A stretch of DNA of 14,566 bases from Laspinema olomoucense D3d (GCF_025370715.1 NZ_JAMXEY010000002.1); one strand, 5' to 3'. Counted from the first letter of the stretch, positions 3,319 through 13,507 are shown. Made by a program: numbers and translations. The notes: a model not told the origin generated them from the sequence alone.

Positions 3319-4416
3319 CTACCTAGGCGATCGCCGAGGGGGAAAAAAATCAGGAAGGTCCAATCCGGGCCAACTTTGAGGCGGTATCTCGGGTTGAGGT
3401 GTGGGGGTTGGAGGTTTGGCAACCCGATATTGAGGGGGGGGAGTCGGGACTACCCGGGTTTGAGGAAGAGAAACCTGCGGTTCATTGGAAAATCCAGTAG
3501 CGATTAAGGTCATTCTCATCTCTCCATGCAGGCGATCGTCAATCACTGCACCGAAAATAATATTCGCATCCGGATCCACTACGTTATAGACTTCTGCTGC
3601 TGCTACATTCACTTCATGTAAGGTGAGATCCATGCCGCAGGTAATATTAAAAACAACCCCTTTGGCCCCGTTAATTGAACACTCTAAAAAGGGCGAAGAC
3701 ATCGCCGAAATCGCAGCTTGTCTAGCGCGAGATTGTCCTTGACCAATTCCTATCCCCAGTAAAGCGGTTCCGGCGCGACTCATCACCGATCGCACGTCGG
3801 CAAAATCCACATTCACTACCCCGGGAATCACAATTAAATCAGAAATCCCTTGTACCCCTTGGCGCAAGATATCATCCGCCACGCCAAAGGCATCCTGAAC
3901 CGGCATATTGTCAGAAATCACGGACAACAATTTCTCATTAGGAACGGCGATCGCCGTATCCAAGCGAGTCTGTAATGCCGTAATCGCTTCCTCGGCAAGA
4001 TGACTGCGCCGTTTCCCCTCGAAGGCAAAGGGACGAGTCAAGACTCCAATCGTGAGTGCCCCTTGTTGTTTGGCAATTTCCGCGACAATGGGTGTGGCCC
4101 CTGTGCCGGTTCCGCCTCCCATCCCTGCGGTAATAAAGACTAAATCACTCCCTTCCATCGCTGCGGCAATTTGACTTCTGGCATCTTCCGCCGCTTTTTG
4201 TCCGATGAGGGGATTTCCCCCAGTTCCTAACCCCTGGGTGAGTTTCTGCCCGATTTGAATGCGGCGATCGGCACGGCATTGGGCTAAAGCTCTAGCATCG
4301 GTGTTAATCCCTACAAATTCAACCCCAGACAGATCACTGGCAATCATCCGGTTGATGGCATTGCACCCGCCACCCCCGACGCCGATCACGGTAATTTTAA
4401 TGAGACTATCGAGCAC
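3319..4416 (-). CDS. ftsZ: Cell division GTPase FtsZ, apparently GTG-initiated at 4416 with an AGGAG Shine-Dalgarno 9 nt upstream
   Basis: The translation shows the tubulin/FtsZ signature GGGTGTG ([15 protein letters not shown]), the GTP-binding N-terminus [17 protein letters not shown], a Pro-rich linker, and the conserved C-terminal peptide LDLPDFF. On the minus strand ACTCAGGAGTAACGAGATC precedes the GTG. An in-frame stop lies 6 codons upstream, so there is no long N-terminal extension. Confidence 0.95.
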
Positions 4417-4479: not shown

Positions 4480-6999
4480 TTACCTCACGATAATAACCCA
4501 CATCCCCAAAGCTAGTCCGAGGGTGGCTAAATGTTGGGGAAGCAGCGATCGCAGGGACTCTCGGCCAATTTTTTGCGTTAACAGAATGCTCAACCCCACT
4601 CCAGCAATTAAGGTGGTTCCTTGCAAAAAGGTAATCACTGCTGGATGTGCAATCCACACGGGCAACCCTTCCCCACTCAACCCAAAGGTGGCAAAGGTGA
4701 CGGGTAAAATGCGTCCCGCTTCTCCTAATCCCAAGCGCAAATAATGAGCTAAACTTCCCCCTAAAACTAAGGGCAAATATCCGTATGCTAATTGGACAAA
4801 GGGTTTAGATTTGAAGGTGCGGTTTAGTCCAACAATGGCCACCCCGGCAAGTAATACCCAGGCGGCAGGAATCCCTAATGCGGCCAATGACAATCCCAAA
4901 TGCGGCCAAAATTGGCTTAAATCAATGCCTAATCCCAGGACTGTATTAATTTCGGGCAATCGATGCAAAAATATTCCCCCTAAAAGTAACAGCAACAAGG
5001 CGACTTCATAGCTACGAGGCTGATGAGTGGTCCACAAATCAATTCCCGGAGGTCGTAGATTGAATTCAACGGACCGATGGGGACAGGCTTTTAAACAGGT
5101 CATGCATAAAACACAATCCCGGTTATCTTCTAACTGGGCGGGATGAGAATAGAGCGGACAGCCATTGGTTTCCATCCCTTCCCCTTTTTGCGGACCGCCT
5201 TTATAACATTGATAGGTGGTGCATTCGGCGGAACAGGTTCCTTGTTGTGCTCTTAATTCGGTCATGGAAAGTTTGGCAAACAGTCCATTCATGCCGCCAA
5301 TGGGACAGAGGTAGCGACACCAAAACCGCCGTTCAAAGATGGCGGAACAAATCATCGCCCCGGCAGTGATTAAGAGGAGTAACCAGGCGGAGAGATAGGC
5401 CGTATTCTGTAAATTCCAGAGTTCTTCCCACAGGAAAATTAGGGTAAATAAGCCGAACAGAAACCAGCCGCCCCATTTTTCGGCTTGCTGTCGCGGCCAG
5501 GGTTTGAGGTTATGTTTTAATAATTTTTCGGAGATTTTTTGGGTAATTTCTCCATAAATCATAAAGGGACAAACGGCACACCACAAGCGACCGACAAAGG
5601 GAAAGGCGAATAGAATTAACGGCCACCACCAGGCCCAAAAGAAGTTGAGGGCAAAGTTGCGATCGCGAGTTTGCGGACCCAGAAATAAGATGGCAACGAC
5701 TAGGGCGAAGGCAACGACGGTAAAACCATAGTTAATGCGATCGGGCCACCAAGGACTGCGAAGAAAATGGCGCAATTGGGGATAAGCATTCAGTAAATTC
5801 AAGCGGAATCGTTTTTTCTTCCCTTGGGCTGCCCAAAAAATTTCTTCCGTTAATTCTCGGGCGCAATCTGACTGGACGATCGCCCGTTCTACTAAGTTTT
5901 GCAATTCCCGAATATTGCCGGGAAAATCATAAGATTGTAGCCGACGGAGAGCTTCTGGGGTGAGTTGGGGTTTGCTCAGCGCTTTGGCGCGACAGTACAA
6001 GCTAATATAATACTCGACTTGAGCGCTAATGTCGGCTTTTCGGACTCGCAGGGGAGGAACTTTGAGGGTTTGGTCCAGATGCGGGGCGATCGCTGGAAGA
6101 TGTTTTTCTGAGATGGCTAGAATTTTGGCAGGGGTGGATTTAGGGGCTGCGGGATCATCCCCTTCTCGGGTGACGGGTCTATAAGTGGCGGTTTTGCATA
6201 GGGTGGCGACTGCCTCAACCAGTTCCTCGGGCAGTTCATCAATGTTGTTGAGAATCAGGGTCCCTTCTCCCAACCATTCGATCAGTCCTGGTTTCCCTCC
6301 CGCCCGTCCAAAGAGTTCTGCCCCCCCTTTTTGGAGAATCCCACAGTTGATTTTGACGATCGGTTGCTGACGGTGGGGGGAACCATAGTGAATCAGGGCA
6401 GCAATATTATCTTTTTCTAATCCCGGTTCCCCGAAAATATAGACCGATCGCCTATCCGACCCCGCCTCTCTAATCTGCTGTCTGAGACGTTGAGCATAGC
6501 GACTTCTGCCCACAATTCCCCGTTTTGCTTTGGTGACAAAATAAGGCCGTAAAGCATCTTGTCGTTGTTGTTCATAAGTCAGCGCACTCGACACCTCGGC
6601 AAGTTCTTGGGCGAGTTGTCGGGTCAAGGTTTGGGTGATTTCTGGGTATTGCCGGACTAATTCCCGAACTCGGTCCGCTGGGACAAACCAGAATTTAGAT
6701 TCGGTGACGGTAGAAATCGTCTGTTCTGGAGGTTGGTCTAAGAGTAATGCCCGTAAGTTAATCGTGCAACCGGGGCTCAATTCATCCGAGGAAGGCGGGG
6801 CATTTTTCAGGGAAGTTTGTAACTCTCCTTCCCGGAGGATGTAGAATCCGGTGGGGAATTTCTCCGGTTCGGCGATCGCCTGATTTGCAGGTAAAATTTG
6901 CTCCTGGAGGACTTGGGCGATCGCTGTTAATACAGGTTCCGATAAACGATTTAATGCCGTTCGTTCCTGCAACCAAGCTACTGGATTGATCTCTGCCAT
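4480..6999 (-). CDS. 839-aa multidomain membrane protein. The N-terminal region is cNMP-binding/CAP-effector-like (aa ~30-125). The central domain is of sigma-54-activator (NtrC-type AAA+) type, with degenerate ATPase and sigma-54-contact motifs (aa ~160-375). The C-terminal half is polytopic membrane, with NapH/MauN/FixG-like Cys clusters (aa ~420-839).
   Basis: The ORF is a single open reading frame with the Shine-Dalgarno AGGAAA 5 nt before the ATG at 6999. The central domain aligns block by block with the NtrC central domain: IVGRS, GEPGLEKD (in place of GESGTGKE), ELFGRAGGKPGL (in place of ELFGHEKGAFTGA), GTLILNNIDELP (in place of GTLFLDEIGEMP), PPLRVRKADI, and YDFPGNIRELQNLVERAIV (versus YDWPGNVRELENAIERAVV). 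The C-terminus has at least 6 hydrophobic helices plus the motifs CAVCP, FWCRYLCPIGG, CSAECTTYQC and CVLCMTCLKACP. Confidence 0.85.
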   Translation of the reverse strand: MAEINPVAWLQERTALNRLSEPVLTAIAQVLQEQILPANQAIAEPEKFPTGFYILREGELQTSLKNAPPSSDELSPGCTINLRALLLDQPPEQTISTVTESKFWFVPADRVRELVRQYPEITQTLTRQLAQELAEVSSALTYEQQRQDALRPYFVTKAKRGIVGRSRYAQRLRQQIREAGSDRRSVYIFGEPGLEKDNIAALIHYGSPHRQQPIVKINCGILQKGGAELFGRAGGKPGLIEWLGEGTLILNNIDELPEELVEAVATLCKTATYRPVTREGDDPAAPKSTPAKILAISEKHLPAIAPHLDQTLKVPPLRVRKADISAQVEYYISLYCRAKALSKPQLTPEALRRLQSYDFPGNIRELQNLVERAIVQSDCARELTEEIFWAAQGKKKRFRLNLLNAYPQLRHFLRSPWWPDRINYGFTVVAFALVVAILFLGPQTRDRNFALNFFWAWWWPLILFAFPFVGRLWCAVCPFMIYGEITQKISEKLLKHNLKPWPRQQAEKWGGWFLFGLFTLIFLWEELWNLQNTAYLSAWLLLLITAGAMICSAIFERRFWCRYLCPIGGMNGLFAKLSMTELRAQQGTCSAECTTYQCYKGGPQKGEGMETNGCPLYSHPAQLEDNRDCVLCMTCLKACPHRSVEFNLRPPGIDLWTTHQPRSYEVALLLLLLGGIFLHRLPEINTVLGLGIDLSQFWPHLGLSLAALGIPAAWVLLAGVAIVGLNRTFKSKPFVQLAYGYLPLVLGGSLAHYLRLGLGEAGRILPVTFATFGLSGEGLPVWIAHPAVITFLQGTTLIAGVGLSILLTQKIGRESLRSLLPQHLATLGLALGMWVIIVR

Positions 7000-7485
7000 A
7001 ACTTTTCCTGTTTATGCACCCTTTTTTTAGATTATTTATCTCCCTCATTCCTGCTAGTTTTATCTCTCTTGCTGAAAAAAATCTCAATTTGGATTAAATA
7101 ATCCTTCATAAATTGGGGTTTTTCAGAGTAGAGTATTCTGAAACAGGAATTACCTCTTTTGCCTCCATCTTACCAGGGCAGCCTTACAGCCTTACATCCC
7201 AGGAATGGTTACCGGCTTTCTTGACAAAATTTGTAGCCCTCACCACCAAGGAAAGGGCCATAATCTGGGTAACTGTCTCCGACTAAATCCCATTGTCAAA
7301 GACCTGCTTGATGTTGACAGCCGTAGCTGGGGCAGGCTTTGTCAGCAAACCCCAGACTCTTGATGGGGCAGATTTAGCCGACCCAGGTAAACCAGATTCC
7401 GTCTTTTTGAGGGAATAGGGGAGTCGCATCCTCGGGGGATTTTCCGACCCAGGCCAGACCGTGATTTCTAGTCTAAATCATTGGG

Positions 7486-7510
7486 GTCGTTTTGAGTCGC
7501 AAACTGACTC
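7486..7510 (-). terminator. Perfect 9-bp-stem palindrome (TTTTGAGTC-gcaaact-GACTCAAAA) ~60 nt downstream of the HAD gene stop. It is a possible terminator or protein-binding site.
   Basis: The inverted repeat is seen directly. The stem is flanked by A/T runs but lacks a clean poly-U tail, so function as a terminator is uncertain. Confidence 0.3.
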
Positions 7511-7567
7511 AAAATTTGACCTTGAAAAAGTATCCTCGAATCCTCGGGATAATCGAGGTCTGCTAGA

Positions 7568-8206
7568 TTACTGTAAGCGGGCGATCGCCTCAATCAAGTC
7601 TTGGGGGTTATTAATCGCTATATCAGGGTTATGTTTAGATAAAACCGTTTTAGAATTAAATCCCCAACTCACCGCGATTACTTTAATTTTAGCTTTCTTA
7701 GCCGCCTCTATATCTCGGGTTTCATCTCCAATATAAATTACATTTTCCGGGGGAATTCCTTCTTTTTTCAAAAAGTTTTTAATGACTTTGTTTTTCCCAA
7801 ACAAGGTGGAACCCGCATGAATAAAGCTGAAAAGTTTAGTCATTTCATTTCTTTCTAAAAATCCTTTAACATTTTCCAGAGAGTTAGAAGTTACAATGCC
7901 CAGCTTATATTCTTTATGGTTTAAAATTTGCAAGGCTTCTACAATACCGGGAATAGGTTTTAAGTTTTGAATCTCATGATTTAATTCTAGCTTAACCATC
8001 TGCAATAAAAAAGGAACTTTAAAAATAGGAATACCCGAGGTTTTAATAATTTGCATTGAATTCATATTCCTCAAATACTCCACATCTTCTTGAGTTGTTT
8101 TTTTATATCCAAACTCTCCAGCCAAGCGATTGGTAATTTTTACAATAGAATCTAGGGTATCCGCAATTGTCCCATCAAAATCAAACAAAATTATTCTCAC
8201 CGTCAT
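7568..8206 (-). CDS. HAD-superfamily hydrolase, subfamily IA (phosphatase / beta-phosphoglucomutase-like)
   Basis: The translation shows motif I ILFDFDGTIADT (DxDGT), motif II GIVTSN, and motif III/IV K...IYIGDETRDIEAA. The Shine-Dalgarno GAGGAAG lies 5 nt before the ATG at 8206. The gene is ~30-35% GC against ~50-58% in flanking genes. Confidence 0.85.
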   Translation of the reverse strand: MTVRIILFDFDGTIADTLDSIVKITNRLAGEFGYKKTTQEDVEYLRNMNSMQIIKTSGIPIFKVPFLLQMVKLELNHEIQNLKPIPGIVEALQILNHKEYKLGIVTSNSLENVKGFLERNEMTKLFSFIHAGSTLFGKNKVIKNFLKKEGIPPENVIYIGDETRDIEAAKKAKIKVIAVSWGFNSKTVLSKHNPDIAINNPQDLIEAIARLQ

Positions 8207-8259: not shown

Positions 8260-8740
8260 GACCCTCCCCTCGGGCAACAGTTGGGCGACTGAAGAGATAA
8301 AAAAGTCAAGATTAAGAAATTTTCACCTTTTAAGTCGCCCCTCCTCGAATCACCAAGATTCAACCCCCGTCTATCCAATTCCGAAACATTCCCCACCCCG
8401 ACTCAATAAAATTATCAGGAGTCGTATCGCAACCGGCATGGAACACCAGCGGGTTTTCTCCCTTGCTTTTAATTTTACGTTAGATAATGTCCCCACCTAG
8501 CCATCGGGGAAACTTGTCCAAAAATCAACCTGGAGACAGACGCCGATCTAGACTTCAGGAGTTAAATCCCGTTACCTCTGCCCTCCGTAACTCAATTGGG
8601 GGTGAGCCCTGCCGCCCAAAACCTGAGTTAGTCCCCTGTGTAAATTTCAGACATTGGGGCTTTTCTTCAGAACCCTTGCCATTTTAAAAATTTTGTACAT
8701 AATAGGGAAAAGCGTTGTCATTTCTTTTAAAAAATTGCTG

Positions 8741-9109
8741 ATGAAACCTAAGCACGTTTTAGCGGGAATTCTTTCTACTGCCGCTGTTGCCACAGGAATT
8801 TTAATCACCTCCGAGGCCCAGGCATCAGGCTGTCCCTTTGCGAAAGGACTAAATCAATCCACTCAAAACCTATCCAATGCTACAGGATTTCATAACGGAA
8901 CGACGAAAGCTGCTTTTCTAGGCGGTGCAGTATTGGCAGCCGGTGCTAGTATTTTGGCAATCCGTCGTCTGGCAGGCGATCGCAGTCCCGAACATCCAGA
9001 ATTTTCCTCAACGGATGAGTTGATTCCCTCATCAGAAGTGTTCCCCACGGAAGTCACCGAACCCCAGGCATCGGTTGTGGAAGAAAAAGAGCTAACTTTA
9101 GTGCGCTAA
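8741..9109 (+). CDS. Small secreted/membrane-anchored hypothetical protein of 122 aa. The start is probably the internal ATG at 8741; the track ORF begins at 8654.
   Basis: MKPKHVLAGILSTAAVATGILITSEAQA|SG is a classic Sec signal peptide with an AxA cleavage site. A second hydrophobic stretch, AAFLGGAVLAAGASILAIRR, precedes an acidic Ser/Pro/Glu-rich tail. No family was recognised. Confidence 0.5.
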   Translation: MKPKHVLAGILSTAAVATGILITSEAQASGCPFAKGLNQSTQNLSNATGFHNGTTKAAFLGGAVLAAGASILAIRRLAGDRSPEHPEFSSTDELIPSSEVFPTEVTEPQASVVEEKELTLVR

Positions 9110-9545
9110 TGCCATCCTAGCCGGGTTATCCTTGAAACTTATCCATCCATTTGGATTCCTCATAAGTTTGAGGAGTCAACCCGGTTAAAACTGCATCATC
9201 AATAACATTAAACCCCTAAATTGCGGTTAATCTATTTATCAAGAGGCTGAGTCGAGACAGTCAGCTATTTTTTAACCCTTTGAAGGGGTGACTTTCCTCC
9301 AGGTTGACTCAATCGATGAGTCTTCAGATCCAGCCTCACGTTATAAGACTGCGGGCCAAATTCTAACAGGCCCCCTAAGAATTAAATATTTATTCCTCTT
9401 GCTTCCCCTATATCCTTTTTTCTGTGGCGATCGCCATTCTGATCGATTCAACCGGGCGTCGGGTTTACCGAGAGGACATGGGCGGTTCTGCGGCAGGTCC
9501 ACGGAGTCAGAACATAGAAACCAGAATTACTGCGAGTGAAATTTT

Positions 9546-10994
9546 ATGCAGATTTCGGTCAGTCGGTTTATTGCTATAGGTTTCTGTGGGCTGTTAGCGC
9601 TATTTACAGGCGGCTGTATTACGAAGGTTGACCCCAACCAGCCAGGAATTGATGCGGGAATTCCTGATGGTAAACCGCCCAACTCTGCACAAGCGGCATC
9701 CCCTCAAGAAATTGTGCAATCCAACGTGGTGCGATCGCTTCCCGGTGGATTAGATCAAGTCCCCATGTTTAATAGTAACAGCCCCGAATGGGTCAAAGTT
9801 GAAGGCATTTTACTCTCCACCTTTCCCCCAGAAGGCAAACAAGTCCCCGCTGCCCATCTTAACTTTGTCTTTAACGATAAATTTGAGCTATTTGCTCATC
9901 ACTTTACCCATACTCCCCCCAATTTACAAACCCTCTATATCGGGATTATAGTTAACAATCCAGGCCCGGAACCTGTTACGGTAACTGTACCGGAAGGTGC
10001 TAGTTATTTACTAGAACCCGATGCTCCCTTTCAAGAGAAACCCGCCATGAGTGATAATCCTAATGGGGAGATTTATTCAGGTCCAGGAATTCGTGCCGTT
10101 GATAACGTATTGCGGGGAATTAGACAAGGGGATTTACCAGAAACCTTAGTTATTCCCCCGGGAGAAAGTCGGATGTTGATGAATCATCCGATTCCAGTCA
10201 AAGGCTTAGAAAAACCGATTAATGGTCGTTCTACTTTTCTGCGCTTACAGAGTGATGGGCCGGTATATTTAGCATCCTTAGCACTATATGCTAAAACGGA
10301 TTCTAAGGGAACTGAACGCGCACCTAATCTTGAAGAATGGCAGCAACTTTTAACTAGGGGAAATCTAGCTTTACCCCGAGATAAAACCCCTAGTCCACCG
10401 GAACAAGTCAGCGGTCAACTGATTTATAGCCGGGTTGCAGGAGTTCAGGAAGGGTCAAAATGGCAGGCTAATTTAGTGGATGAAGGAAGTGAGTATTTAG
10501 CGCTTCCTGAACCGGAAAAAGCCGTTTCTTATGTAATTAGTACCTTACGCGCTGGGACATTAGGAACAGGTCAAATTCAAGCGGCCAAGCTGTTAGTTCG
10601 ATATCCAGATACGGCTTATGAATCCCATGCGAACTATGGGGTGCATTATGATTTAACCCTCCCCCTACGAAACGAGAGCGATCGCCCGCAAAAAGTGGCA
10701 GTTACCTTAGAAACCCCGATGAAAGAAGAACGGTTATCTAAAGGTGGATTAATCTTTCGTCAACCCCCGTGGGATTATCCCTTTTTCCGCTCAACGGTCC
10801 GCTTGCGATACACCGATGATAATGGAGAAAACATTACCCGTTATCTACATTTATGGCATCGTCGGGGACAGATTCTTGACCCATTAGTAACCTTAAATTT
10901 AGCCCCCAATGAGGTGCGATCGGTCCAGGTTGATTTCCTTTATCCTCCGGATTCCGTCCCGCCTCAAGTCTTGACAGTTAAGACGTTAGAATAA
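9546..10994 (+). CDS. Conserved hypothetical exported protein or lipoprotein of 482 aa
   Basis: The N-terminus MQISVSRFIAIGFCGLLALFTGGC is a signal peptide ending in a lipobox-like LFTGGC. The ORF is long and clean with HIP1 sites inside it. No catalytic motif was recognised. Confidence 0.75.
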   Translation: MQISVSRFIAIGFCGLLALFTGGCITKVDPNQPGIDAGIPDGKPPNSAQAASPQEIVQSNVVRSLPGGLDQVPMFNSNSPEWVKVEGILLSTFPPEGKQVPAAHLNFVFNDKFELFAHHFTHTPPNLQTLYIGIIVNNPGPEPVTVTVPEGASYLLEPDAPFQEKPAMSDNPNGEIYSGPGIRAVDNVLRGIRQGDLPETLVIPPGESRMLMNHPIPVKGLEKPINGRSTFLRLQSDGPVYLASLALYAKTDSKGTERAPNLEEWQQLLTRGNLALPRDKTPSPPEQVSGQLIYSRVAGVQEGSKWQANLVDEGSEYLALPEPEKAVSYVISTLRAGTLGTGQIQAAKLLVRYPDTAYESHANYGVHYDLTLPLRNESDRPQKVAVTLETPMKEERLSKGGLIFRQPPWDYPFFRSTVRLRYTDDNGENITRYLHLWHRRGQILDPLVTLNLAPNEVRSVQVDFLYPPDSVPPQVLTVKTLE

Positions 10995-11016: not shown

Positions 11017-11574
11017 TTAAAGTAGGGATTTGAGTGCTAAGGTAAACCCCGGGACAATATTTTCACCATTTAAGATTGCGGTTGCGGGATATGGGGTAAT
11101 GGAACCGTCAGCGCGATAAACGAACCCCTGTTGATTTTGGCGATCGATTAACCATCCCAACTGCACCCCATTTTCAATATATTCTTGCATTTTATCCTTA
11201 AGTTTTTCTAGCCCGTCAGTTTTGGAGCGAATTTCTATGACAAAATCGGGAGGGAGATTTAAAAATTCATCGGTTCCCTGATCCCATCCTTCGGGTAAAC
11301 GTCCTTTTGCCACAAACGCAGCATCAGGCGATCGCACTGCACCATTGGCTAATTTAAACCCACAACTTGAACTAAAGACTTCCCCCAAATCGTGCTGTTC
11401 TACCCAATACAAAAGATAGGCCCCTGCTTTCAGTTCTCGATTACTAGAAATTCCTCCAGTGGGTGGCATAGTCTCTAACGTTCCATCTGCATTCCGCTCA
11501 AATCTCAATTCAGGGTTTTGTGAACTGATTTGCATCAGTTCTTCATCGGTTAAGGTATAAAACTTTTGGACCAT
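11017..11574 (-). CDS. Uma2-family (DUF820) PD-(D/E)xK putative endonuclease. The start is probably the ATG at 11574 (MVQKFYTLTDEEL) with a GAGGT Shine-Dalgarno 8 nt upstream; the track ORF starts at 11598.
   Basis: The protein is ~185 aa with the characteristic Uma2 organisation. PDFVIEIRS carries the PD...E.K-like core and a C-terminal GF motif is present. The family is highly expanded in cyanobacteria. Confidence 0.8.
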   Translation of the reverse strand: MVQKFYTLTDEELMQISSQNPELRFERNADGTLETMPPTGGISSNRELKAGAYLLYWVEQHDLGEVFSSSCGFKLANGAVRSPDAAFVAKGRLPEGWDQGTDEFLNLPPDFVIEIRSKTDGLEKLKDKMQEYIENGVQLGWLIDRQNQQGFVYRADGSITPYPATAILNGENIVPGFTLALKSLL

Positions 11575-11696
11575 TATTTTACCTCGAAACACTCCCATTC
11601 AATGGGATATTCTTTAATTTAATATAACAATTTTTACCCCCTATTTTACTGCGGTATGGAAGAAACGACGGCAGTTGTGACTATGAGCAATAAAAA

Positions 11697-11770: not shown

Positions 11771-13507
11771 TTATAAAGAAACCACAACTCCAGGGCTTTC
11801 ATTTGCCATGCGGTCTACGCTACAAACGGCATAACTTCCCGGTTGTAATCCGGTGAGGGAATTGGTGGCGGAATTCAGAACTTTGACCAGTTGCCATTCA
11901 TTCCCGTTGCGACGATAAACGCTCCAGTAGCGAACATCATTATTACCAGAATCCCAGGCGATCGCATTCTCACTGGCACGAACACCTGTGGGAACTGCCG
12001 GTGGAACTGCATCTAACCAAGGCATAGTAGGAGGCAGTGCCTGGGAAGGATAGACTGCTGCTCTAAAACGCTCGTTGATTCCTAACCAATTTTCCTTAAA
12101 CACTTTCATGCTAAAGAAAATATTACCCAGGGACAGTTGATCCACCGCTTGGCGAGAAATTTCCACCTGTCTTTCAAACTCAGAAATTGGCCACCCACTG
12201 CCATCAAGTTTGCTCAGATAGTTTCCGGCATAAATATGACGGCGCAGGGGATTATTTTGACTCCACCAGTTTAATAACACGGGATAGCTTTGTTGAGGGG
12301 GGTCAATCCGCCAATAGAGTTGAGGAGCCAGATAATCTAGCCACCCTTCATCTAGCCATTTTTTAACGTCGGCATAGAGTCCATCAAATTGGTCAAATCC
12401 GACAATTCCCTCAGCTTTGCCCGGACGATAAATTCCAAAGGGGCTAATTCCAAATTTAACGTAGGGTTTTTCGGTTTTGATCCCGTTCCAAATCCGTTCG
12501 ATCGCATCATTGACGTTTTTTCTGCGCCAATCTGCCAGAGAAAGCGTTCCGCCACTGTTTTGATAGGCGCCATAAGTGGCGGTATCGGGGAAGCGCACCC
12601 CTTCTTGTGGATAGGGGTAGAAATAGTCATCAATATGAATGCCATCGATATCATAGCGACGGACCACATCCATAATCACGTTATAAGCCCGGTCTTGGAC
12701 TTCTTTTGCCCCGGGGTCCATCCAGAGTAAATCCCCATATTGATAGGCATATTGGGGAAACATGGAGGCCATGTGATTAGGAGTCAGGCCATATTTTTCT
12801 CCTGGCATTTTAGCGCGGTAAGGATTAAACCAAGCATGAAGCTCGATATTGCGCTTGTGACTTTCAGCGATCGCAAACTCCAGGGGGTCATAAAAAGGTT
12901 GGGGCGCTTGTCCCTGAGTTCCCGTTAGCCATCCACTCCAAGGCTCAATTTGCGACGCATAGAAGGCATCTCCATTGGGCCGAATTTGGAGTACCAGGGC
13001 ATTCAAATTTAATGATTGTATCTGGTCCAGGATTTCCAGCAGTTCCGCTTTTTGCTCGTCTACGGACAAATTGCTCGCGGAGGGCCAGTCAATGTTGGCC
13101 ACCGAGGCCACCCAGACCCCTCTAAATTCGTGCTGATGGCCGACACTGACGAGCTTTTGAACCCGATCATCGCCTTGGAGTGGAAATTGGAGTTGTGTCA
13201 TTTCAGGGGATCTGCGCTCACCTCCCGGGTTGTTGATGGGTGCAGGGACTGCAGTGGGGGGAGCAACCGCAGGCGGCATCACTGGGCGGGGATACTGCGC
13301 GGTCCCCGGTGGAACGTTGAGCAATAACAAGAGTAAACAACCCCAGACTGCAAACTGGATTTTGAGTGGATTTCCCGTGAAAAAAGTACGCACGATGCGC
13401 TGACATAGGGACCACAGGTTTGTTGATAACTGACCTGTGGCACCCATGCGGCGCTTCGGTTGTCTTTGCTGGAAAATTCGGAATACTAAGCGCATCAATT
13501 TCATCAT
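11771..13507 (-). CDS. Glycoside-hydrolase-like family 10 (GHL10 / YngK-YddW-like, DUF187) secreted protein. The start codon is uncertain; alternatives are ATG 13507 or ATG 13447.
   Basis: The hydrophobic segment IQFAVWGCLLLLLLNVPPGTAQ forms a signal peptide. It is followed by a Pro/Ala-rich linker and then EFRGVWVASVANIDWP...NLNALVLQIRPNGDAFY...HAWFNPY, which is typical of the GHL10 TIM-barrel family. The C-terminus has a beta-rich tail. Codon usage is normal and HIP1 sites are present. Confidence 0.8.
   Translation of the reverse strand: MMKLMRLVFRIFQQRQPKRRMGATGQLSTNLWSLCQRIVRTFFTGNPLKIQFAVWGCLLLLLLNVPPGTAQYPRPVMPPAVAPPTAVPAPINNPGGERRSPEMTQLQFPLQGDDRVQKLVSVGHQHEFRGVWVASVANIDWPSASNLSVDEQKAELLEILDQIQSLNLNALVLQIRPNGDAFYASQIEPWSGWLTGTQGQAPQPFYDPLEFAIAESHKRNIELHAWFNPYRAKMPGEKYGLTPNHMASMFPQYAYQYGDLLWMDPGAKEVQDRAYNVIMDVVRRYDIDGIHIDDYFYPYPQEGVRFPDTATYGAYQNSGGTLSLADWRRKNVNDAIERIWNGIKTEKPYVKFGISPFGIYRPGKAEGIVGFDQFDGLYADVKKWLDEGWLDYLAPQLYWRIDPPQQSYPVLLNWWSQNNPLRRHIYAGNYLSKLDGSGWPISEFERQVEISRQAVDQLSLGNIFFSMKVFKENWLGINERFRAAVYPSQALPPTMPWLDAVPPAVPTGVRASENAIAWDSGNNDVRYWSVYRRNGNEWQLVKVLNSATNSLTGLQPGSYAVCSVDRMANESPGVVVSL

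Follow-up and report, generated by a model that had tools for sequence, protein, structure and literature searches.

What could be the function of a protein that databases list as a sigma-54-interacting transcriptional regulator, when it is anchored in a membrane, shows no match to a DNA-binding domain and comes from a phylum without sigma-54? This question is raised by a gene in a 14,566-nucleotide stretch of DNA from the cyanobacterium Laspinema olomoucense D3d (GCF_025370715.1 NZ_JAMXEY010000002.1), hereafter called the window. The gene occupies positions 4480-6999 on the minus strand, where all features of its product also lie, and is a complete gene for a membrane protein of 839 amino acids (aa). 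From the N- to the C-terminus, this protein comprises a domain resembling those that bind cyclic nucleotide monophosphates (cNMP), a AAA+ domain of the sigma-54-activator type with its lid, a NapH-like module of four transmembrane (TM) helices with a ferredoxin domain, and five more TM helices. Its open reading frame (ORF) is a single frame with an ATG start, and more than 100 orthologs of about 840-866 aa are colinear with it along 99-100% of its length. Hence, an artefact produced by a frameshift, or two genes mistaken for one, can be excluded, in line with the first-pass annotation of this DNA, which had been made from the sequence alone and had treated the ORF as one gene.

On balance, we think it somewhat more probable than otherwise that the NapH-type membrane redox module is the functional core of this protein, and that the pseudo-AAA+ domain is a scaffold attached to it. 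The gene itself is nothing unusual within a large family whose members are already catalogued in databases, and the novelty lies in the family and not in the locus. Members are recorded thousands of times under the names 'sigma 54-interacting transcriptional regulator' or 'nitrogen assimilation regulatory protein'. These names are misleading, since the tested sequence features exclude such a role. A functional or mechanistic study of the family was not found in the full-text literature, from which subscription journals are mostly missing, so that this absence is not proof. The earlier statement that the architecture had not been described was hence right concerning its mechanism, but not concerning the databases. 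Furthermore, the Pfam and NCBIfam searches returned the matches that had been predicted in the first-pass annotation, namely cNMP_binding (PF00027), Sigma54_activat (PF00158) and Fer4/NapH-like.

The putative membrane iron-sulfur module and its conservation

The membrane-bound part of the protein is introduced by a conserved juxtamembrane segment (aa 381-420, positions 5740-5859; LTEE..FW....K..RFR.NLLN..P.LR.FLRS.WWPDRIN), which has a majority-residue frequency of 0.86 with many invariant residues and is modelled by AlphaFold2 (AF2) as a short strand plus helices. It leads into the NapH-like four-helix module (aa 417-570, 5290-5751), which was recognised from Pfam Fer4_5 (two stretches, E 3e-9), the NCBIfam NapH/MauN model, AF2, hydropathy and charge bias. 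The helices were placed at aa 417-440 (TM1), 449-469 (TM2), 503-527 (TM3) and 534-554 (TM4), with values of the AF2 confidence measure pLDDT (predicted local distance difference test) of about 90. Two Cys-pair motifs on the predicted cytoplasmic side follow TM2 and TM4, C474xxC477P (5566-5580) and WC561xxxC565PIGG (5302-5319 for C561xxxC565P), respectively. The subsequent ferredoxin-like domain (aa 571-660, 5020-5289) is predicted to be cytoplasmic and was identified by its Cys motifs together with weak Pfam Fer4 matches at aa 624-641. Its eight conserved Cys residues would hold two predicted [4Fe-4S] clusters, with an atypical first motif, C589x3C593x4C598...C614P, and a canonical second one, C629xxC632xxC635xxxC639P. 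The remaining part (aa 661-839, 4483-5019) forms five further TM helices according to AF2 (pLDDT 83-98) and hydropathy, at aa 663-679 (TM5), 697-725 (TM6), 734-771 (TM7), 786-812 (TM8) and 820-838 (TM9). Hence, the CxxCP, WCxxLCPxGG and CxxCxxCxxxCP motifs on which the first-pass annotation had based its NapH-type polyferredoxin domain in the C-terminal half are present (C474/C477, C561/C565 and C629-C639), and the NapH/MauN match agrees with this assignment.

The full-length AF2 model was poor at the Fe-S domain (pLDDT <30) and was replaced by a model of aa 385-839 from a deeper alignment of 66 sequences, including algal and distant bacterial relatives. This model reached a pLDDT of 89.7 and a predicted template modelling score (pTM) of 0.89, and contains two short juxtamembrane helices, TM1-4, a small alpha/beta ferredoxin-like domain and five TM helices. 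Because the N-terminal approximately 400 residues would be cytoplasmic and the loops obey the positive-inside rule, the predicted topology has the Cys-pair motifs and the ferredoxin domain on the cytoplasmic side and the C-terminus outside. This predicted arrangement agrees with the published topology of NapH.

The same 66 sequences from cyanobacteria, algae and distant bacteria reveal how strictly the module is kept. C474, C477, C561, C565, P478 and E525, the latter near the outer end of TM3, are invariant, and the same is true for W560, G568, H619 and R649. All 12 Cys residues of the two Cys pairs and the ferredoxin domain are at least 90% conserved, if not invariant, and conservation of at least 90% also applies to a W-W-P motif where TM2 begins on the outer side. 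Four His residues in the C-terminal five-helix bundle (H679, H700, H752 and H785) are invariant in cyanobacteria; they are not conserved in the distant relatives, and heme binding by this bundle is therefore not supported family-wide.

The nearest curated family is NapH/MauN (TIGR02163), which matches aa 467-647 with profile positions 75-254 of 255 at 53-55 bits vs a cut-off of 213; NapH PRK09477 reached 40.9 bits vs a cut-off of 234, the NosR model 20 bits, and CcoG TIGR02745 a non-significant 8.6 bits (E 0.79). In view of the 55 bits vs 213, the module is, as judged from its sequence, NapH-like but not a NapH ortholog. It shares with the NapH/MauN family and its relatives (NosH, the C-terminal domain of NosR, CcoG/FixG and YccM) the core of four TM helices and Cys-x(2,3)-Cys-Pro after TM2 and TM4, and the predicted cytoplasmic domain that follows would, with its two putative [4Fe-4S] clusters, correspond to theirs. 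However, it differs in its first motif (CxxCP instead of CxxxCP), in the atypical first cluster motif (Cx3Cx4C...CP), in five extra TM helices at the C-terminus and in approximately 400 extra cytoplasmic residues at the N-terminus. The role known for proteins of the NapH family is that of electron-transfer components. A solved structure resembling the membrane domain was not found, neither by Foldseek at E<=1e-3 nor by a sequence search of the PDB, which returned weak 4Fe-4S motif matches alone.

The module also stands out in comparison to the rest of the protein. More than 2,400 clusters in a large protein collection match the 839-aa sequence at E<=1e-5. The best 120 of them show 85-100% query coverage and 67-93% identity, and are almost all 828-891 aa long, save three forms of 1115-1121 aa; the closest named ortholog (93% identity) comes from Laspinema sp. 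A4, a member of the same cyanobacterial genus of the order Oscillatoriales. Conservation was measured as the mean majority-residue frequency in 48 cyanobacterial orthologs, and these 48 sequences also underlie the residue counts given below. By this measure, conservation is highest in the ferredoxin domain (0.95), followed by TM1-4 (0.88) and the AAA+ domain (0.79-0.83), and is lowest in the cNMP-like domain (0.65).

Orthologs with 42-55% identity were found in green algae, namely Trebouxia, Coccomyxa, Micractinium, Monoraphidium, Gonium, Volvox, Chlamydomonas incerta, Edaphochlamys, Picocystis, Ostreococcus tauri, the streptophyte alga Klebsormidium nitens and, by source label only, Scenedesmus. 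These are genuine intron-containing nuclear genes: the Volvox gene extends over 7.8 kb with about 15 exon-like tblastn segments and the Klebsormidium gene over 10.2 kb with about 11, and both are flanked by eukaryotic neighbours on large scaffolds. Identity to the algal orthologs amounts to 66-81% in the ferredoxin domain, including that of Ostreococcus with its minimal genome, 54-62% in TM1-4, 38-45% in the AAA+ alpha/beta subdomain (27-31% in two Ostreococcus-cluster sequences), 30-50% in the AAA+ lid and 0-27% in the cNMP domain. Volvox, C. incerta and Ostreococcus have kept the AAA+ and membrane parts and lack the cNMP domain altogether; in Volvox about 85 residues precede the linker, too few for such a domain, and they look like a transit peptide. 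The N-terminus from Klebsormidium aligns poorly (9% identity). Among the named matches, names being available for only part of them, no land-plant sequence was found. The gradient observed in cyanobacteria and algae points to the Fe-S module as the core of the protein. Moreover, the high level of conservation, with about 70% identity across cyanobacterial orders and the values for the algal Fe-S domain mentioned above, argues for a function under strong selection in oxygenic phototrophs.

Degenerate AAA+ domain, cNMP-like domain and distant relatives

The alpha/beta subdomain of the AAA+ domain (aa 161-315, 6055-6519; Pfam PF00158 and PF14532) belongs to the sigma-54-activator type and is catalytically degenerate. 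Sigma54_activat matches aa 162-277 (E 9e-12, 45 bits vs a cut-off of 20.2), and the lid (aa 316-380, 5860-6054) is matched by AAA_lid_14, PF25601, at aa 318-378 (E 4e-15, 56 bits vs a cut-off of 27). A phmmer search of the PDB connected the AAA+ region to VpsR, PspF, NifA, LuxO and FleQ, with VpsR as the best-scoring solved relative (E 3e-22), and Foldseek aligned the AF2 model with NtrC1, FlrC, FleQ, PspF and VpsR at template modelling scores of 0.66-0.76 on the target. The full-length model used here has a mean pLDDT of 69.8, the cNMP-like and AAA+ parts being mostly in the 80s. Consequently, Pfam and Foldseek both bear out the fold proposed in the first-pass annotation. NCBIfam models for NorR, NifA, PspF and others gave partial matches of approximately 60-94 bits, compared to their cut-offs of 440-800.

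The state of the single motifs was read from a HMMER alignment to PspF and from a MAFFT motif table. In the Walker A remnant GEPGLEKD (aa 190-197, 6409-6432), which corresponds to GERGTGKE in PspF, the Lys is kept and the preceding Gly is changed to Glu; F189-L194 (FGEPGL), K196 and D197 are invariant in the orthologs, while E195 occurs in 45/48 and N198 in 47/48. The Walker B remnant LILNNI (aa 248-253, 6241-6258) has NN in place of the DE in LFLDEL of PspF, with N251 invariant and N252 present in 43 of the 48. At the sensor I position, the Asn is replaced by Glu298 (6106-6108), again without exception among the orthologs. The helix with the arginine fingers (PspF R162 and R168) is deleted, and Q310 pairs with R168. 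Finally, the L1 loop with the sigma-54-contacting GAFTGA motif is missing: the sequence GRAGGKPGL (aa 231-239, 6283-6309) marks the deletion site, where a gap of 8-10 residues relative to PspF and soluble activators falls exactly at GAFTGA (HEAGAFTGAQKRHPGRFE in PspF vs RAGGKPGLIE here). Both alignments pair KPGLIE with HPGRFE of PspF, which follows the loop. The lid retains the family end signature FPGNIRELQNLVER (5878-5925), and the sensor II position is occupied by R364, an Arg also in PspF, with Arg in 24/48 and Lys in 24/48 orthologs. No match to HTH_8/Fis-type or other helix-turn-helix (HTH) domains was detected by Pfam at E<=1, and the membrane domain follows directly after the lid.

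Most motif readings of the first-pass annotation are thereby substantiated: the Walker A and Walker B remnants, the end signature and the absence of an HTH domain were assigned properly, and the check it had proposed for the arginine finger and sensor II found the former deleted and the latter in place. It was also correct in stating that a functional GAFTGA loop is missing; however, its equation of GGKPGL with this loop was a misalignment, and the nucleotides 6286-6303 assigned to it encode AGGKPG, one residue off. Glu298 at sensor I, the deletion of the arginine-finger helix, the atypical cluster motif that completes the eight Cys residues of the ferredoxin domain and an additional change in the cNMP cassette (A84, see below) go beyond that annotation.

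Since the degenerate motifs vary little or not at all among the orthologs, the domain appears as a selected non-catalytic scaffold rather than a case of decay. Hence, as far as its motifs tell, the AAA+ domain is non-catalytic and under strong purifying selection, as is typical of a pseudo-enzyme that still serves for structure or binding. This part of the earlier proposal, an exapted AAA+ scaffold, is supported by the invariant degenerate motifs. Concerning a possible ligand, inspection of the sequence by eye did not favour FleQ-style c-di-GMP binding, since the contact residue of FleQ that follows Walker A, an Arg, is presumably absent.

A comparison with the bacterial enhancer-binding proteins (bEBPs) NtrC, NtrC1, PspF, NorR and NifA shows the same AAA+ clade fold, the lid and the ...PGN(I/V)RELxNxVER signature, and the layout of N-terminal sensor, long helix and AAA+ domain is that of soluble cNMP-regulated bEBPs. 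In contrast, the place of the HTH domain is taken by a 455-aa membrane Fe-S domain, and Walker A reads GEPGLEK instead of GxxGxGK. Some atypical bEBP-like regulators, the soluble proteins VpsR, TyrR, HupR and the NtrC of Rhodobacter, are likewise not known to have a functional GAFTGA motif or to act with sigma-54, and they keep their DNA-binding domain. Unlike these, the 839-aa protein is membrane-integral and without a DNA-binding domain, and while VpsR has retained GESGTGKE, its own P-loop is non-canonical. Furthermore, the host phylum is without sigma-54, which was not found in 29 cyanobacterial genomes (PMC3162934). This survey agrees with the first-pass annotation, which had stated that the phylum lacks it. 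That the domain nevertheless occurs in cyanobacteria was not recognised in the published comparison.

Two variants of the AAA+ region were observed among the relatives. In three proteins of 1115-1121 aa (P0005, P0006 and P0008; e.g. from Trichocoleus desertorum), the linker-AAA+ module is present twice in tandem; in P0008, the P-loop of copy 1 is more canonical (GEAGVGKV), copy 2 reads GEPGLGKD, and Walker B is degenerate in both. The 901-aa protein P0127 of Spirulina major (42% identity) has a canonical Walker A (GAPGTGKT), 'ISNA' at Walker B and the same L1 and arginine-finger deletions as the Laspinema protein. It may represent an intermediate form or a paralog.

The cNMP-binding-like beta-roll (aa 36-118, 6646-6894) was recognised by Pfam PF00027 (E 3e-9, 37.1 bits vs a gathering threshold of 27.5, spanning profile positions 4-89 of 89) and is modelled by AF2 with a pLDDT mostly in the 80s. 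A long helix (aa 120-153, 6541-6642; AF2) links it to the AAA+ domain, and the linker region of aa 119-160 has a majority-residue frequency of 0.80. The equivalent of the phosphate-binding cassette lies at aa 77-97, with the family consensus G77..L82-x-E84-LLL-x5-R93-T94. In the Laspinema protein the Glu is replaced by A84 and the Arg by Q93, the latter being the missing phosphate-binding Arg of the first-pass annotation, so the canonical pattern (G-E-x-x-L ... R-[ST]-A) does not occur. By column counts, E84 is present in 45/48 and R93 in 24/48 cyanobacterial orthologs. Since the key ligand-contact residues are missing, this domain probably no longer reads cAMP or cGMP. The idea of a second-messenger sensor, the other part of the earlier proposal, is not upheld, given A84 and Q93, the presence of the Arg in half of the orthologs and the absence of the whole domain from Volvox, C. 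incerta and Ostreococcus.

A HMMER scan of 1.84 billion cluster representatives gave 423 clusters at E<=1e-30. Together with a genome scan, which detected full-length relatives of the same architecture with 27-33% identity in other bacterial phyla, and with the algal orthologs, several of which lack the cNMP domain, it provides the phylogenetic distribution of the fusion that the first-pass annotation had proposed to establish. The relatives occur in Desulfobacterota (e.g. Desulfosediminicola flagellatus and Desulfomonile), anammox Planctomycetota (Scalindua, Brocadiaceae), Nitrospirota, Bacillota (Desulfotruncus, Thermincola, Desulfosporosinus), Acidobacteriota, Elusimicrobiota, Armatimonadota and Dehalococcoidia. 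They have a canonical cNMP cassette (GE.SLLTGEPRSA) and, in most cases, a canonical Walker A (GERGTGKE). All of them lack the DE of Walker B, the Asn of sensor I and both arginine fingers, and only remnants of GAFTGA are found (GAIPSA, NAFPFS, TAFALA). Their nearest non-membrane kin are soluble cNMP-AAA+-HTH_8 activators with all motifs intact; three of these (P0428, P0438 and P0450) show 35-37% identity over 41-43% of P0156, one of the distant membrane-fused relatives.

Accordingly, loss of ATPase and sigma-54-contact function characterises, at the level of sequence motifs, the whole membrane-fused family. The cyanobacterial and algal clade is further altered, with the P-loop Gly replaced and both the L1 loop and the arginine-finger helix deleted. 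Sigma-54 is common in Desulfobacterota, anammox Planctomycetota, Nitrospirota, Bacillota and Acidobacteriota. Because relatives from phyla generally possessing sigma-54 share the losses, the motif decay is family-wide and not explained by the absence of rpoN from cyanobacteria, contrary to the connection drawn in the first-pass annotation. The presence of the same losses in such distant relatives also indicates that the non-catalytic state is old and maintained.

A general partner gene was not found among 51 loci of distant relatives. At four of them (L006, L041, L058 and L065; two anammox Planctomycetota, one Armatimonadota and one delta-proteobacterial locus) a gene for a CHASE2-adenylate/guanylate cyclase adjoins the relative, and at three others (L004, L039 and L040) genes for a SpoIIE-type PP2C phosphatase and an RsbW-like kinase do so. 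The hisD-gidB-leuB-prs order represents lineage-specific housekeeping synteny of Desulfobulbales. The canonical cassette and the four adjacent cyclases support the assumption that cNMP input is real in the distant relatives and ancestral to the family.

Possible mechanism and competing explanations

The data above show the architecture, the states of the motifs, the pattern of conservation and the phylogenetic distribution. From these we infer the cofactors, the topology, electron transfer, oligomerisation and which domain controls which, as follows. The protein would span the inner membrane or the thylakoid membrane with about nine TM helices, with a cytoplasmic N-terminus and a C-terminus outside. 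Its Cys-pair motifs would lie at the cytoplasmic ends of TM2 and TM4, next to the ferredoxin domain with two predicted [4Fe-4S] clusters. Most likely, this Fe-S module would exchange electrons between the membrane quinone pool and a redox partner or substrate in the cytoplasm or stroma. In the AAA+ domain, ATP hydrolysis would be lost together with Walker B, sensor I and the arginine fingers, as would the sigma-54 loop and, in this clade, the normal P-loop. Since the motifs for hydrolysis and for sigma-54 contact are gone, it could act only as a scaffold of structural, oligomerising or allosteric kind. The cNMP-like domain would be an ancestral regulatory input, which looks functional in distant relatives and has probably been lost here.

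Nevertheless, several points weigh against this reading. What is said of Fe-S and nucleotide binding, of the interaction with quinone and of the oligomeric state derives from motifs, and the NapH membership lies below the curated cut-off. No gene for a NapG/NapA-like or other redox partner occurs nearby, neither in the window nor in the other cyanobacterial loci. The lack of a solved template for the membrane domain makes the mechanism unreadable from structure, and there is no obvious cofactor to take electrons across the membrane. Furthermore, Lys196 is invariant and the altered P-loop around it strictly kept, so that a ligand of some kind could still bind there. Finally, the data do not separate a regulated enzyme from a redox sensor, i.e. 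the direction of information flow.

Some information exists on a possible homolog in a model strain. The Synechocystis sp. PCC 6803 gene slr1529 ('ntrX') is probably an ortholog, judging by its annotation with cNMP-binding and sigma-54 domains and by its nitrogen assimilation name, which is also attached to the orthologs from Richelia, Volvox and Edaphochlamys. This name implies nitrogen regulation linked to sigma-54, which is contradicted by the sequence features of the 839-aa family. In the literature found, slr1529 occurs only in expression tables for iron and copper stress and in one knockout screen. In this screen of 32 regulator knockouts, in which the mutants were passaged to full segregation and confirmed by PCR, the metabolite changes of the slr1529 mutant at 72 h ranked among the six largest. 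The slr1529 transcript drops to 0.29 after high copper (PMC4182526), and the antisense RNA slr1529-as1 is positively co-regulated with the mRNA under iron depletion (r = 0.92; PMC3516471).

A redox sensor or transducer is the main alternative to consider: the Fe-S module would sense the redox state of the quinone pool, oxygen or NO, and the pseudo-AAA+ ring would signal to soluble partners without substrate turnover. We regard this as rather unlikely, though worth keeping in view. Domains derived from bEBPs have their origin in signalling, a dead AAA+ domain whose surface is strictly conserved would suit partner binding, and signalling genes adjoin some distant relatives (the three phosphatase/kinase and four cyclase loci) and, as a cNMP_binding+HATPase_c protein, the Chroococcidiopsis ortholog. 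However, such neighbourhoods are restricted to few loci, and no neighbour recurs as a partner throughout cyanobacteria. The ferredoxin domain is extremely conserved over its whole length, even in its loops, as would rather be expected of an enzyme or of an interface obligatory for electron transfer; electron transfer is also the known role of NapH-family proteins. Kinship within the polyferredoxins suggests a more specific form of the enzyme reading. CcoG/FixG belongs to the same NapH-like superfamily and is a reported cupric reductase, so that the protein could be a cytoplasmic Cu2+/Fe3+ reductase that feeds reduced metal to the thylakoid lumen or periplasm, e.g. for plastocyanin, cytochrome oxidase or cytochrome c6. 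Its occurrence in both cyanobacteria and green algae is similar to that of the copper-regulated switch between plastocyanin and cytochrome c6, and the copper response of slr1529 would fit as well, but only if this gene is the ortholog. We consider this activity improbable: the CcoG model is not matched significantly, slr1529 is listed among general stress-repressed carbon/nitrogen genes (PMC4182526), no copper-handling genes are found nearby in the window and the cyanobacterial loci examined, and land plants are missing only from the named part of the matches.

The role given by the database annotation, an NtrC/NtrX-type transcriptional regulator working with sigma-54 or, like TyrR, VpsR and HupR, with sigma-70, is very improbable. 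Its basis comprises the Pfam and NCBIfam matches to sigma-54 activators, the source-given names, nrtC/nrtD genes in the window and VpsR as the best PDB sequence match, VpsR being an atypical activator reported to act with sigma-70. However, the protein has no DNA-binding domain and is anchored in the membrane by nine TM helices, it has lost the GAFTGA loop by deletion as well as Walker B, sensor I and the arginine fingers, and the NCBIfam regulator models are matched with approximately 90 bits at cut-offs of 440-800. Moreover, cyanobacteria are without sigma-54 (PMC3162934), orthologs reside in green-algal nuclear genomes, and the nrt genes are on the opposite strand and missing from the other loci examined. 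On these features the protein is not a transcription factor, and a classical activator role is excluded. Equally little weight can be given to a docking platform for PspA/Vipp1 (IM30)-type proteins, conceived by analogy to the binding of PspA to the AAA+ domain of PspF, which would link membrane stress or thylakoid upkeep to the redox module. PspF is among the best sequence and fold matches, and cyanobacteria and green algae have PspA/Vipp1 homologs, but the likeness is not specific for PspF, because VpsR, NorR and NifA score as well or better. In addition, a Gln is aligned here to Trp56 of PspF, its PspA-contact residue, and neither pspA nor vipp1 occurs nearby in the window or the cyanobacterial loci examined.

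Returning to the redox module with its attached scaffold, we tentatively suggest, as possible rather than probable, that the protein is an ancient component of the photosynthetic or respiratory membrane in oxygenic phototrophs which green algae inherited with the plastid, i.e. a NapH-type Fe-S device for electron transfer or redox signalling that has kept a dead AAA+ ring as structural or allosteric element for more than one billion years. If true, such a device would act on the redox poise of the plastoquinone pool or the stroma, or on the supply of metal cofactors. It would be a candidate for a missing player in redox or metal biology of the thylakoid or plasma membrane. The family also offers a clean natural case of a AAA+ motor turned into a non-catalytic module, either before cyanobacteria inherited it or independently of their missing sigma-54, and an entry point to the poorly understood NapH/NosR/CcoG membrane polyferredoxins, a class for which the PDB searches found no solved structure. 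Synechocystis, Synechococcus PCC 7002 and Chlamydomonas are all accessible to genetic work.

Genomic neighbourhood

The gene is flanked by a HAD hydrolase gene on one side (7568-8206, minus strand) and by ftsZ on the other (3319-4416, minus strand), the latter 63 bp downstream. The ftsZ product, 365 aa long, contains Tubulin and FtsZ_C domains and carries an LDLPDFF...RR peptide at its C-terminus; its ORF looks N-terminally short for a cyanobacterial FtsZ. The order HAD-gene-ftsZ is shared with the locus of an 88% identical ortholog (L089) and with Phormidium sp. CCY1219 (L086), and was not seen in the loci of Lyngbya, Chroococcidiopsis, Picosynechococcus and Tolypothrix; this synteny is confined to close relatives. 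In the window and seven other cyanobacterial loci, neither an operon partner conserved across cyanobacteria nor napG/napA, mauM, nosZ or similar partner genes were found, and no cco gene lies near the gene or its orthologs.

On the plus strand, the window further contains genes for an NrtC-like ABC ATPase, which has an NMT1_2 (NrtA-like) domain at its C-terminus (49-1881), and for an NrtD-like ABC ATPase (1986-2816), whose ABC domain is apparently cut at the N-terminus, as the Pfam match begins at profile position 62. The pair looks like part of a nitrate/bicarbonate-type transporter operon. It is encoded opposite to the 839-aa gene and is absent from the other loci examined, and its proximity may have encouraged the naming of the protein as a nitrogen regulator.

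Rfam and tRNA scans of the window returned nothing. Three ORFs on the plus strand, at 8654-9109, 7461-7736 and 9288-9539 (151, 91 and 83 aa), are without Pfam match; the second overlaps the HAD gene in antisense and is probably not real. A gene for a DUF3370 protein (9546-10994, plus strand; E 1e-191) and one for a GHL10 glycosyl-hydrolase-like protein (11771-13507, minus strand) are both syntenic in L089, and a putative endonuclease gene of the Uma2 family lies between them (11017-11598, minus strand). In Chroococcidiopsis sp. CCMEE 29 (L087, 4294-5718), a gene for a 474-aa cNMP_binding + HATPase_c protein is located directly upstream of the ortholog on the same strand, which echoes the RsbW-like kinase and SpoIIE phosphatase beside the distant relatives in L004, L039 and L040. 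In Picosynechococcus sp. PCC 7003 (L001, 10738-10947), a gene for a 69-aa protein of the high-light-inducible type (Chloroa_b-bind, weak match) follows directly downstream of the ortholog on the same strand.

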